The translations under genes were made by a program, and so were the position numbers. Below the pieces are notes generated by a model. The model was not told the DNA's origin, did no database searches, and saw only the letters and a program-made list of their open reading frames with translations. This document shows positions 7,875 through 23,635 of a DNA stretch of 64,000 nucleotides, one piece after another; position 1 is the first letter of the stretch; the number at the start of each line of letters is the position of its first letter. The DNA is from Escherichia coli (GTDB lineage: Bacteria > Pseudomonadota > Gammaproteobacteria > Enterobacterales > Enterobacteriaceae): the NCBI RefSeq assembly GCF_044324875.1, contig NZ_CP172185.1. One strand, 5' to 3'.

Positions 7875-10137
7875 CCTGGATCTCCTTCGACAATTCGACA
7901 AAGAAGGCGCTGTATCCGGCAACGCGCACCACCAGCCCGGCATAATCTTGTGGGCGCTGTTGCGCTTCCCGCAACGTGTCGGCGTTCACCACGTTAAACT
8001 GAATGTGTTGTAACTTAAGCTGGGTAAATGCCCGTAAGAAGTCGGCCAGTTTGCGTAATCCCGCTTCACCTTCCAGGGTCGCCGGAGTGAATTTCACGTT
8101 CAGCAACGTACCGTTAGACAGCAGCGTATTATCGAGCTTACTGACTGACTTCAGTACCGCCGTTGGCCCTTGTGCGTCCTGACCCAGCATAGGTGACAAG
8201 CCGCCGTCTGCCAGTTGTTCCCCGGCAAAACGACCGTCTGGCGTCGCGCCAACCACCGATCCCAACGGGACGTGAGCAGAAACGGTATACGATCCTGGCG
8301 TGAAGTAGCCGCCGCGCGGGTTCTGGTATTTTTCCACTTCTTTGCAGTAGTGGCGTAACAGTTCGGCGCTGATGTTATCCACCTCGTCGATATCGTTACC
8401 GTATTTCTCGAAGCGGTTAATTAAGCGAGCGCGGACTTTTTCGCCTTCTGGCGTTGCGAAGTTGGCTTTTAATACCGACAGCAATTCGTCAAAACTTAAA
8501 CGCTGTTGATCAAAAATCATCCCTTTCAACGCATGGAGAGAATCGCTCAGGTTGGCGATACCGATCCCCTGTACGCCGGAGAAGTTATAACGCGCGCCGC
8601 CATCGGTAATATCGCGACCTTTTTCCAGACAATCGCTGATAAAAGACGAGAGCAGCGGTACAGGTGCCCAGTCGCGATGGCCGATATCACAAATATTGCT
8701 GCCCTCTACCATCAGGGTGATGTAGTGGCTGATCTTGGCGCGGATCTGTTCCAGTAAACCTTCATAAGTCAGCGCAGCGTTACCTTCATTTTCATGCAGG
8801 CAGATTTCCATCACTTTCAGCAGGTTAAACATCGCGATGTCATGCAAGCCGTAGGTTCTGCCGGGAATAGATAATTCCACGCAGCCCACTACGGAATAGT
8901 CGCGCGCATCTTCCAGCGAAACGCCACGGTTGAGGAACGCTGGCACCACCACTTCATCGTTAAAGATTTGCGGAATACCGGTACCGAGGCGAATAGTTTC
9001 TGCGGTTTTCATCAGGAACGGCGTGTCGATCAAGGCGTTAGTGCGCACCCCCAGGTTCGGTTGCGGTAATTGCACACTTTGATAGGCGTCGAGACAGAGG
9101 AACGAAAGTACGTTCACCGCGCTACGTCCGTTCTCGGTTAACCCGCCGAGCAGTGCGGTATAGCCGGTCGGGAAACCGGCGAAATAACGCGCGCTACTGG
9201 TGGAGCGCAACAGCACGATGTCGTTGCATTTCACCCATAAAGATTCGAGCAGTTCTTTCAGGAACGCCGGATCTTCGCCCTGGGTTAATGATGCCTGATA
9301 GAACGGCAACATATACTGGTCGAAGCGCCCTAAAGACAGAGAACTGGCGTTGGATTCGTATTGCAGAATGATGTTCATGTACCAGAATAACTGGCACGCC
9401 TGCCAGAACGTCTGCGGCTTATGTTCGGCGTTATGGCGGGAGATCTCCGCAATAGTCAGCAGTTCTTCGCGACGCTGGGCATCTGTGCAGTTTGCCGCCA
9501 TCGTTTCCGCCAGTTCAGCGTAACGCAGAATGTGTTTCCGCGAGGCTTCCAGCAGTAACAGCGCTGCCTGATAAAAGTGATTCTCCGGCTGTTGCTGACA
9601 ATGTTGCTGCATCTGTGCCACCAGCTCACCCAGCCCGTGATTCAGCAGGCGCGGGTAATCAATAATAATGTGCCCCTGGCCTTTATCCGTCTGGTTGATG
9701 CTGAAAATCTGCGTGCTGGTCGCGGCTTTTACTTCATCCGTCATCTGCCCGTTAATGAAATCTTTCATCGAACGTTTTTCCCAGTACGGGAACAACTCTT
9801 CGCGGTAGATACGTTTATCTTCTTCGCTGATAGCAAAGCGGTCCTGCGGACGCGTCGGGAATTGATCCAGCTCTTTCAGCAGCCAGTAAGGGTCCATTTC
9901 CGGCGACATAATTCCGGCGCGCGGTTTCACCGTACGGTTACCGGCAATCAGTTCTTCATCACGAATCGAAATTTCAACATGTTCAAGGATATGCGCTGTT
10001 GCTTTCGCCCGGCGCAATATCACCGGTTCGCCTTCGGTTTGCCGATGGCTGGCGGTATAAAGCAGCGCCCGCTCCAGCGAGATTTCACGGGTATTGGCAA
10101 ACAGTGCAGTTTTGAGGCGAGAGATACGATTCGTCAT
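7840..10137 (-). CDS. pflD: Formate acetyltransferase 2 (glycyl-radical enzyme)
   Basis: 765-aa ORF MTNRISRLKTALFANTREISLERALLYT...; glycyl-radical motif region near C-terminus (RVAGYSAFF); ATG at 10137. Confidence 0.95.
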   Translation of the reverse strand: MTNRISRLKTALFANTREISLERALLYTASHRQTEGEPVILRRAKATAHILEHVEISIRDEELIAGNRTVKPRAGIMSPEMDPYWLLKELDQFPTRPQDRFAISEEDKRIYREELFPYWEKRSMKDFINGQMTDEVKAATSTQIFSINQTDKGQGHIIIDYPRLLNHGLGELVAQMQQHCQQQPENHFYQAALLLLEASRKHILRYAELAETMAANCTDAQRREELLTIAEISRHNAEHKPQTFWQACQLFWYMNIILQYESNASSLSLGRFDQYMLPFYQASLTQGEDPAFLKELLESLWVKCNDIVLLRSTSSARYFAGFPTGYTALLGGLTENGRSAVNVLSFLCLDAYQSVQLPQPNLGVRTNALIDTPFLMKTAETIRLGTGIPQIFNDEVVVPAFLNRGVSLEDARDYSVVGCVELSIPGRTYGLHDIAMFNLLKVMEICLHENEGNAALTYEGLLEQIRAKISHYITLMVEGSNICDIGHRDWAPVPLLSSFISDCLEKGRDITDGGARYNFSGVQGIGIANLSDSLHALKGMIFDQQRLSFDELLSVLKANFATPEGEKVRARLINRFEKYGNDIDEVDNISAELLRHYCKEVEKYQNPRGGYFTPGSYTVSAHVPLGSVVGATPDGRFAGEQLADGGLSPMLGQDAQGPTAVLKSVSKLDNTLLSNGTLLNVKFTPATLEGEAGLRKLADFLRAFTQLKLQHIQFNVVNADTLREAQQRPQDYAGLVVRVAGYSAFFVELSKEIQDDIIRRTAHQL

Positions 10138-20677: not shown

Positions 20678-21571
<894 letters not shown>

Positions 21572-21949: not shown

Positions 21950-23503
21950 TTACTTGATATCTTTCACGCGCATACCGTTGATCTGTTCATCCGTGATGGT
22001 GTTACCCGCTTTGAAGTAATCAACCACGGCGTGATAAACGTAATAACCGCCCGTTGTGTTACGCGCTTTCCCTTCGGTAAAGGCGGTAAAACCATCTCCA
22101 CCATCAGCAAGGAAACTCTGAGTAGCAATGTGGTAAATCGTCGCATCTTCAATGGGTTTGCCATTCAGAGTCAGTGTGATTACCCGCTGACCAACCGGTT
22201 TGCTGCTGTCGTACTTCATTTCCAGGCCTTTCGATACCTGTAAAACGCCATTACTTAAACTTGCGCCGTGTTCCATCAAACTGCGTAATTGTTTACCTGT
22301 GAGATCCATCGTCACCAGTTCATTGGGGAACGGGAAGGTACTGATGACGCCGCCCATCGTAATCGCCCCTGCGGGGATCTCATTGCGAATGCCGCCAGAG
22401 TTGGTTAACGCCAATTGGGTGTTTTTACCCGCCGCTACCAGTAAAGCATCAGCCGCCAGGTTCCCGAGGGAAGCCGATTCACCATAGGCACGTTTTAATT
22501 CAACCGGCGATTTCGCGACCGTTTGTTGCACCACTTCATCAAGCTTTTTATTCCAGCCGTCGATCACCTGTTTCGTTTGCGGATCGGGCTTCCACTCATC
22601 GGCGTAAATGGTTTTAAGCTCGAAGTTTTTCACCGTAAAATCATGCGGCTTCTCTTTGTAGTCGAGGACCAGTTTGCCCACATCAATCCCGCCGCTGTCA
22701 GTGGAGAGGATGAGCGTATTGCCGACTTTAATCGGTTCCGGCGTACCCACATGTGCATGTCCGGTGATCAAAATATCCAGCCCTTTCACCTGACTTGCCG
22801 TCTGAATATCTTTATCCAACGCGCGACGCACATCGGTCCCTCCCATACTGGACTGGCGGGCCGGAACACCTTCGTGGATCAGGGCGACGGTCAAATCAAC
22901 CTTGCCTTTGAGTTCATCGATATAACGTTGTAGCCATTTAATTTCATCACGCGCCTCAATACCCACTCGCGTTGCCGCAGATACCGTGTCATTAAAGGCA
23001 AATACACCGTGCAAACCTATAACGCCTATTTTCACACCGTCTTTTTCGATGATGGTATAGGGCTTATCCCAGAATGATTTACTGCTGTTCTGATAAAAAA
23101 CATTGCCCTGCACAATCGGGAATTTTGCCTGACTCAACTGTAATAATGTGTTGTCCCAGCCGTGGTCAAATTCATGGTTGCCTATCGTGACGGCATCAAA
23201 CGGCATAGTATTCATAATATCGATAATAGCCTTACCTTTGGTCAGGCTGCTGATATAGGGCCAGGTAAAATAGTCGCCCGCATCAAAAAACCATGTCGCT
23301 TTATTTTTTGCTTTTTCTTGCTTAACCAGCGTAGTGATATTTGCCCAGCCGCCAATATCCCGTTTACCGTCAGCGATCCACGGCACTTTATAAGGCTCGA
23401 CATGTGCATGGAGGTCGTTGGTATAAATGATGGTGACATCTTTAGCGCAAGCCCAGAATGGCAGTGTTAATGCGATACCCGCAGCAAGTATTTTAATTTT
23501 CAT
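21950..23503 (-). CDS. Secreted calcineurin-type metallophosphoesterase / 5'-nucleotidase-family protein (UshA/CpdB-like)
   Basis: 517-aa ORF; N-terminal signal peptide [20 protein letters not shown]; metallophosphatase motifs in order DxH (NDLHAH), GD (DAGDYF), GNHE (GNHEFD), GH.H (ITGHAHV); C-terminal half consistent with 5'-nucleotidase substrate domain; RBS aaaggga upstream. Confidence 0.8.
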
Positions 23504-23635
23504 AAACAGTCCCTTTCAGTGAGATAAAGGATTGCTACATTACGTTCTGAAAGAGTTATTTATGTGAGAGTAATCACATCCACAGGGGAGCGTTGCCGGA
23601 CAAAATCAACGACCATGTGAAATCGTTGGTGATAT

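Follow-up and report, generated by a model that had tools for sequence, protein, structure and literature searches.

In Escherichia coli, the genes for nucleoside uptake and catabolism are activated by the cyclic AMP (cAMP) receptor protein CRP, and the CRP/CytR- and DeoR-controlled promoters that serve nucleoside scavenging in strain K-12 (tsx P2, deoP2, cdd, udp, nupC and nupG) usually carry tandem CRP sites with CytR in between. The locus analyzed here is a 132-bp intergenic spacer (23504-23635) in a stretch of 64,000 nucleotides from the chromosome of another E. coli (contig NZ_CP172185.1; the whole stretch is hereafter called the window). It separates a gene for a secreted 5'-nucleotidase from the divergently transcribed gene of an uncharacterised cysteine-rich (Cys-rich) protein, and the gene pair is located between metF and metL. 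As with the K-12 scavenging promoters, the uptake and breakdown of external nucleosides and nucleotides appear to be placed under cAMP-CRP, and a long form of the island that carries the gene pair includes a Tsx-like nucleoside channel (PMC12928451; also seen in locus L040, described below). The locus differs from these promoters in that one strong CRP site is predicted, a CytR- or DeoR-type operator was not recognised by eye, and the candidate regulator encoded next door belongs to a different, uncharacterised family.

At 11 E. coli loci, two divergent promoters are governed by one and the same CRP site. The consensus of the CRP box is a 16-bp palindrome, TGTGA-N6-TCACA, with G4 and C13 as its key positions (PMC3105977). 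According to El-Robh and Busby (2002), in the form in which that work is cited in PMC3105977, CRP at one target can activate divergent promoters. In common with the shared-site divergent promoters of araBAD-araC, xylAB-xylFGHR and glpEGR-glpD, the present locus has one TGTGA-N6-TCACA box in a short spacer, roughly equidistant from the two genes, one of which is catabolic or scavenging while its partner encodes a putative regulator. However, the spacer is unusually short in this company, and both promoters would be of class II with starts about 83 bp apart, which would make them mutually exclusive. As the locus is absent from K-12, it is missing from the CRP data sets that are based on this strain.

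A third point of reference is IS1 InsA, which combines a zinc ribbon, a DNA-binding module, with a helix-turn-helix, binds the terminal inverted repeats of IS1 and represses its own promoter. The Cys-rich protein is similar in having a CxxC...CxxC module that weakly resembles those of InsA and of the IS1 and IS1595 families, followed by a predicted transposase/integrase-type RNase H-like core, and in the presence of a conserved inverted repeat directly upstream of the start codon of its gene. Unlike InsA, the Cys-rich family matches these models below their curated cut-offs, the E. coli-type protein is without the helix-turn-helix-like segment, and the gene occupies a fixed syntenic locus in many genera rather than being mobile and multi-copy. 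A catalytic acidic triad could not be located in the protein.

A conserved CRP box in the divergent spacer

The initial annotation of the spacer described a divergent control region with short inverted repeats that could be operator sites. The divergent control region is real: when one genome per species was scanned, homologues of the Cys-rich protein were found at 30 loci, and 28 of these have the nucleotidase gene upstream of the Cys-rich gene in divergent orientation, with a spacer of 137-146 bp counted from start codon to start codon inclusive, and strongly conserved blocks are found inside it. One of the listed repeats belongs to an exact CRP box, and it is likely, judging from the match and its conservation, that the spacer is a compact divergent promoter region in which one cAMP-CRP dimer at 23563-23578 activates the promoters of both the nucleotidase gene and the Cys-rich gene.

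The 22-bp CRP site covers 23560-23581 and has its dyad centre between 23570 and 23571, at 67.5 bp from the ATG of the nucleotidase gene and 65.5 bp from that of the Cys-rich gene. TGTGA-N6-TCACA occurs a single time in the 64-kb window, against 0.08 occurrences expected, and it arose in 2 of 5000 dinucleotide-preserving shuffles of 23504-23635, which served as the chance control for all repeats of the spacer. Within E. coli, nine variants of the region were picked evenly down the identity ranking (87-100% identical over 381 bp); TGTGA and TCACA are invariant in all nine, while the N6 centre varies (GAGTAA, GAGCAA, GAATAC). For the comparison across genera, 23 sequences of the spacer were aligned, and 21 homologous regions from Escherichia, Citrobacter, Klebsiella, Enterobacter, Pluralibacter, Silvania, Superficieibacter, Pseudocitrobacter, Kluyvera and Salmonella arizonae were scored for the CRP site and its spacing. 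Every one of these regions has the TGTGA/TCACA pair with at most two mismatches. TCACA, G4 and C13 are invariant, the left half-site takes the forms TGTGA, TGCGA, TGTGC and CGTGC, and the centre is unconserved, with at least ten variants. Conserved half-sites around a free centre are the pattern of a two-part protein-binding site. The core is also kept at a fixed position in paralogous copies of the locus, and S. arizonae, which has lost the 5' part of the Cys-rich gene, retains both the CRP site and the nucleotidase side. In a B2-type E. coli (locus L040), a CRP-like site with one mismatch, TGTTActaagaTCACA (9501-9516), is located upstream of a second nucleotidase gene.

The same element recurs at distant loci. 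When 1.84 billion representative proteins were searched with a profile of the Cys-rich protein, only 178 relatives were found (E ≤ 0.001); the genomic context was taken for nine full-length relatives that are 23-30% identical, and ten non-redundant upstream regions were compared, comprising eight from distant loci, that of the window and that of locus L039. Nine of these ten regions contain a CRP-like site that has no more than one mismatch and whose centre is 65-80 bp upstream of the first gene. In an unbiased word count, the top common words were those of the CRP half-sites, namely TGTGAT (9/10), TCACAT (7/10) and AATGTGA (6/10), at levels reached in none of 300 shuffles, and the flanking sequence of the distant loci is otherwise unrelated to that of the window. 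Two further words, AATCGTT (four of the ten regions) and GTTGAT (six), were considered as common operator words and rejected: both stay within the range of the best word of a shuffled set (the most widespread 7-mer per shuffled set occurs in 4.4 regions on average), which is exceeded by the CRP words only.

Palindromes of the LacI/PurR type adjoin or lie near the CRP-like sites at distant loci (ACGTAAACGTTTGCGT in L046, 2311-2347; GAAACGTTTGG in L047, 3344-3356; CGCAAAcacgaTTTGCG in L041, 4640-4660), which suggests that those organisms have a further repressor that responds to nucleosides or purines. Inspection of the window region by eye, with no formal scan, gave no palindrome of the LacI/PurR type and nothing convincing among FNR-like, MetJ-like, Pho-box and LacI-family palindromes.

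Predicted promoter geometry and proposed mechanism

Predicted -10 hexamers flank the CRP box on both sides at distances that do not change among the 21 regions (Table 1). TAATGT on the minus strand and CAAAAT on the plus strand begin 28.5 bp and 30.5 bp from the CRP centre, respectively; with a -10 hexamer at -12 to -7, CRP would therefore be located near -41 on each side, i.e. in the class II position. The 22-nt stretch 23579-23600, between the CRP core and the hexamer of the Cys-rich gene, varies in sequence but not in length. Such rigid spacing from CRP to the hexamers is what an activator at a fixed position relative to the -10 element would produce. One conserved block extends from the start codon of the nucleotidase gene through its ribosome-binding site (RBS) to 23556, and a second consists of CAAAATCAACGACC, 5-7 variable bases and then AAATCGTTGGTG.

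From the match, its rarity and its conservation in sequence and spacing, we infer a model of CRP occupancy, of the transcription starts and of the direction and class of activation. A single cAMP-CRP dimer would bind the palindrome TGTGAgagtaaTCACA, almost exactly midway between the two start codons, and would activate the gene of the periplasmic 5'-nucleotidase leftward and the Cys-rich gene rightward. Both promoters would probably be activated in the class II manner, CRP taking the place of a -35 element with its centre about 41 bp ahead of each start. The nucleotidase transcript may start near 23529-23530, with CRP at about -40.5 to -41.5, and that of the Cys-rich gene near 23612-23613, with CRP at about -41.5 to -42.5, which would leave leaders of about 23-27 nt. 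The module would be switched on once preferred carbon sources are exhausted, as are other enteric nucleoside-scavenging genes, a physiological fit due to the periplasmic nucleotidases and, in the long form, the Tsx-like channel that the island encodes.

Several observations weigh against this model. In Enterobacter, Pluralibacter and Silvania, the left half of the site deviates from the consensus at one or two positions. Both predicted -10 hexamers are weak (3/6 and 4/6 matches), and a sigma-70 promoter scan of 23350-23800 made no call at either of them, its only call being inside the nucleotidase coding region; a missed call is expected for activator-dependent promoters, yet the scan lends no independent support. 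For the Cys-rich gene, an alternative -10 element, TGAAAT (23617-23622), would place CRP near -59 to -61, in a class I arrangement. Two class II promoters on one site cannot be occupied simultaneously. A literature search for binding, transcription-start and expression data on the locus found none. Finally, the spacer between CRP and the nucleotidase -10 element, CTTTCAGAACG on the minus strand, is conserved far beyond the needs of a plain spacer, and it is possible that a second factor is bound there. Read on the plus strand (TTCTGAAAG, within 23545-23556), the same spacer is almost invariant across genera, and its counterpart on the opposite side of the CRP box is free to vary.

The predicted shared CRP site offers a testable regulatory assignment for an accessory module that encodes between one and three periplasmic nucleotidases, joined in some strains by a Tsx-like channel. 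About a third of the complete E. coli genomes carry this module, among them sequence type 131 (ST131) and other extraintestinal pathogenic E. coli (ExPEC), as well as in Klebsiella, Citrobacter and Enterobacter. If the assignment is true, a nucleotide-scavenging module would be tied to carbon limitation (high cAMP), which would be relevant for growth on host-derived nucleotides. The CRP element itself is a textbook one, in what would be a previously unannotated CRP-controlled promoter region. Less ordinary is the neighbour, a member of an uncharacterised and apparently transposase-derived family that travels with nucleoside-scavenging genes; this linkage is the only unusual aspect of the region.

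Table 1. Features of the divergent spacer and its flanking genes (positions in the window)
Feature	Position	Strand	Description
metF	20678-21568	-	Flank of the gene pair
5'-Nucleotidase/metallophosphatase gene	21950-23503	-	517 aa, secreted, UshA/YfkN-like; Pfam Metallophos E = 9.6e-12, 5_nucleotid_C E = 4.4e-39; RefSeq annotation
Nucleotidase RBS, AAAGGGA	23510-23516	-	Read from the sequence; plus-strand TCCCTTT or TTCCTTT conserved; overlaps the left arm of the 7-nt repeat
7-nt repeat, left arm, CTTTCAG	23513-23519		CTTCCAG in 3/9 E. coli variants; CTTTCTG or CTT-CAT elsewhere; other arm unchanged
Predicted nucleotidase -10, TAATGT	23537-23542	-	TAAnnT in 21/21 regions (TAATGT, TAAAGT, TAACGT, TAACTT, TAAAAT); exactly 20 nt from the CRP core, no indels
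7-nt repeat, right arm, CTGAAAG	23547-23553		Between the CRP site and the predicted nucleotidase -10; conserved in most species, TTGAAAA in one clade
Predicted CRP-binding core, TGTGAgagtaaTCACA	23563-23578		10/10 match to the CRP box TGTGA-N6-TCACA
Predicted Cys-rich gene -10, CAAAAT	23601-23606	+	CAAAAT 17/21, CAGAAT 3/21, TAACAT 1/21; always 22 nt from the CRP core
8-bp inverted repeat	23605-23630		ATCAACGA (23605-23612) and TCGTTGGT (23623-23630) with a variable 10-nt centre; not listed in the initial annotation
Third ATGTGA	23615-23620		Not conserved: TTGTGA or TTATGA in E. coli variants; CTTGAA, TTAAAA, GCAAAA in other genera
Cys-rich gene RBS, GGTGA	23628-23632	+	Read from the sequence; within the invariant block AAATCGTTGGTG
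Cys-rich protein gene	23636-24766	+	376 aa; two Cys4 modules, then an RNase H-like core of integrase/transposase type (predicted); uncharacterised family
metL	24730-27162	-	Flank of the gene pair

Short inverted repeats of the spacer

The repeats of the initial annotation were mostly placed correctly. CTTTCAG and the third ATGTGA are found where it had put them (Table 1), as are ATGTGA at 23562-23567 and TCACAT at 23574-23579; CTGAAAG exists as well, but at 23547-23553 rather than 23546-23552, so that the spacer between the 7-nt arms is 27 nt and not 26 nt. The accompanying caution that repeats of this size may arise by chance is justified for the generic ones: an exact inverted repeat of at least 7 nt is present in 32.7% of the shuffles, and the five 6-nt inverted pairs observed, against a shuffle mean of 2.1, are reached in 10% of them. 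The generic short repeats are not beyond chance. The caution does not extend to ATGTGA-N6-TCACAT, which is rare among the shuffles and conserved, as described above.

A cross-genome alignment, which had been proposed as a check on the repeats, retained the TGTGA/TCACA pair, but neither the third ATGTGA nor a constant left arm of the 7-nt repeat. The 7-nt pair has undergone four independent one-arm changes, none of which is matched in the opposite arm. These changes alone do not rule out a protein site, since the arms of a protein-binding palindrome evolve independently. At the third ATGTGA, the A at 23615 is unique to the lineage of the window, and the TGTGA that follows is replaced by TATGA (as in two E. 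coli variants), TTGAA or TTAAA elsewhere. Apart from the CRP box, the listed repeats are an RBS, promoter spacer sequence and a lineage-specific coincidence. On the plus strand (23549-23567), an ATG TGA located 7 nt after GAAAGAG places a start codon directly against a stop codon inside the left CRP half-site; this start-stop pair is probably a by-product of the A before TGTGA.

Alternative explanations of the conserved blocks

It is possible, although the case is a tentative one, that CRP acts together with a local regulator responsive to nucleotides or nucleosides, either the Cys-rich protein or a CytR/DeoR-like protein, bound at ATCAACGA-N10-TCGTTGGT (23605-23630) and/or at TTCTGAAAG (23545-23553), an arrangement that would complement activation by CRP. 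E. coli nucleoside genes are typically controlled by CRP plus CytR or DeoR. The right arm of the 8-bp repeat and its flanks (AAATCGTTGGTG) do not vary among the 21 regions. The left arm varies little, and its changes are all one-sided, with no change on both sides; the 10-nt centre is variable. In addition, the repeat overlaps the predicted start of the Cys-rich gene, a usual position for a repressor, and on the nucleotidase side the CRP-to-hexamer spacer is more conserved than a spacer needs to be. AATCGTT occurs in four of the ten distant upstream regions, but its enrichment is lost after correction for the number of words tested. Inspection by eye, with no formal scan, gave no CytR-like TTGCA and no DeoR-like 16-bp palindrome. 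The 8-bp repeat is the best remaining candidate for a local operator, yet its overlap with the -10 element, transcription start and RBS of the Cys-rich gene, and hence a function in the promoter or leader, could by itself explain its conservation equally well.

In a more specific version of this scenario, the Cys-rich protein would be a dedicated regulator of nucleotide and nucleoside scavenging in Gammaproteobacteria and the founding member of an undescribed transposase-derived family, binding ATCAACGA-N10-TCGTTGGT, possibly the relic of a transposon end, alongside CRP. This appears unlikely at present.

The proposal of the initial annotation, that the listed repeats (CTTTCAG/CTGAAAG, ATGTGA/TCACAT and the third ATGTGA) are operators through which the Cys-rich protein regulates its own gene and controls the nucleotidase gene, is quite improbable. 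The pairing of the two divergent genes is strictly maintained, nucleotidase or nucleoside genes also neighbour the protein's distant relatives in eight of nine contexts, and one of the two conserved Cys4 modules weakly resembles the zinc ribbon of IS1 InsA, all of which would suit a regulator; both 7-nt arms, moreover, lie in conserved blocks and flank the predicted -10 element and start of the nucleotidase gene at about -21 and +14. However, one shuffle in three contains a 7-nt inverted repeat by chance, and the left arm is the nucleotidase RBS, to which its conservation can be attributed. ATGTGA/TCACAT is an exact CRP box that recurs at loci whose Cys-rich proteins are merely 23-30% identical, and the third ATGTGA is not conserved. 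The E. coli-type protein also does not contain the segment of roughly 40-100 residues that follows the zinc ribbon in distant relatives and yields weak, sub-threshold helix-turn-helix hits.

Similarly improbable is the idea that RNA hairpins in the 5' leaders mask the RBSs, formed by 23605-23630 on the plus strand over GGTGA and by 23555-23511 on the minus strand over AAAGGGA. On the plus strand, 98.7% of the alignment cells are paired and the 12 one-sided changes that are tolerated are without exception transitions leading to G-U pairs, and on the minus strand the 7-nt repeat can be lengthened to a stem of 9 bp containing the RBS, with a T-to-C change in some E. coli producing a G-U pair. Against this, no pair has changed on both sides, and the shuffle control is hence uninformative. 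The folding energies are ordinary (z about -0.4 to -1.5; for the 8-bp repeat, z = -0.54 on the plus strand and -1.54 on the minus strand), and neither hairpin would have its 5' arm in the transcript if the starts are those proposed (about 23613 and about 23529). An Rfam scan of 23300-23800 at E up to 1 gave no family match. A scan of 23350-23800 for terminators found a single terminator-like hairpin (23607-23628, read on the minus strand), which was rejected, as a C-A mismatch is present in 19 of 19 sequences and 12 further alignment cells break the stem.

Pure chance, with none of the repeats functional and the CRP-like palindrome included, may be set aside: the repeats are short and their generic statistics unremarkable, but a CRP core fixed in position with a free centre in about ten genera and in paralogous copies, and recurring at unrelated loci of the same gene family, already contradicts it.

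The Cys-rich protein

The product of the Cys-rich gene is annotated as 'cytoplasmic protein' or 'hypothetical protein'. It was assigned to no Pfam or NCBIfam family, all sequence matches being sub-threshold. Residues 74-105 weakly resemble the zinc ribbon of IS1 InsA and of IS1/IS1595 elements (NF050000, 21.8 bits against a cut-off of 28; PF03811, 14.9 against 26.1). In an alignment of 48 sequences that covers the wide family, the eight cysteines of the two Cys4 modules are at least 90% conserved, those of the zinc ribbon being C74, C77, C97 and C100. A first structure model, based on 22 close homologues, was poor (predicted local distance difference test score, pLDDT, 57.6) and was not used; the AlphaFold2 model built from the 48-sequence alignment is confident (pLDDT 93.7; predicted template modelling score, pTM, 0.93) and contains a predicted RNase H-like core of the integrase/transposase type, a fold expected of IS1/IS1595-type DDE transposases. 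A PDB search with the protein sequence gave no significant match, with a single hit at E = 0.97.

None of the acidic residues is conserved in at least 90% of the 48 sequences, and the invariant residues are R94, C97, C100, R197, H228 and W300. The gene does not show the combination of terminal inverted repeats, many copies and variable insertion sites that marks a mobile element, being fixed at metF-metL. In view of the missing conserved acidic residue and the fixed syntenic position, the protein looks transposase-derived rather than an active transposase.

Nucleotide- or nucleoside-scavenging genes adjoin the relatives of the Cys-rich protein in eight of the nine distant contexts. Degradation is represented by a 5'-nucleotidase in four of them and by a row of acid phosphatase, phosphodiesterase and porin genes in one. 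Transport and catabolism are represented by a NupC-type transporter with a nucleoside phosphorylase, by a row of phosphopentomutase-like, phosphorylase and NupG-type genes, and by a row that contains Tsx. Given this consistent linkage, the protein may regulate the locus.

Distribution and genomic setting of the gene pair

The gene pair is carried by 1840 of 5426 complete E. coli genomes, and the others, without the pair, retain metL and metF. The interval between metF and metL is its usual position in Escherichia, Citrobacter, Klebsiella, Pseudocitrobacter, Kluyvera and Salmonella arizonae, and each genome carries it at one or two places; in some genomes a second, paralogous copy is located elsewhere together with an extra nucleotidase gene and a Tsx-like gene. 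The module has a G+C content of 43-51%, compared with 55-61% for its flanks. Despite this lower G+C content, the module looks old, i.e. ancestral at metF-metL with repeated loss, rather than recently inserted, because its position is conserved across genera. The two genes have diverged at different rates: among cross-genus loci with a complete, closely related nucleotidase, the nucleotidases are 88-98% identical and the Cys-rich proteins 57-93%. A literature search on the island, its regulation and the protein family found solely a 2026 genome paper, in which metL..metF is listed as a putative nucleoside-processing module.

Several forms of the locus were observed. B2-type E. coli, as in locus L040 (8257-13761; E. 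coli ExPEC XM), have a longer island, in which two further 5'-nucleotidase genes and a Tsx-like channel gene come after the Cys-rich gene in the same orientation. The window has the short island form, from which these three genes are missing. In this form, the 3' end of the Cys-rich gene overlaps the convergent 3' end of metL by 37 nt (24730-24766), and the C-terminal residues …NNCASRLISD of the Cys-rich protein are specific to it. A record from E. coli IH5 (L052; NZ_CP168949.1, 5050204-5056409) consists of a run of unrelated partial gene fragments of roughly 0.2-1 kb and looks like an assembly artefact; the only partial match to the control region (hit H55) came from this jumbled record and was ignored. 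E. coli WP5-S18-ESBL-07 (L004) has an intact control region, although its nucleotidase gene carries an internal stop and is annotated as a pseudogene. The genes of the module are decayed in Kluyvera, and the Cys-rich gene is truncated in Salmonella arizonae.

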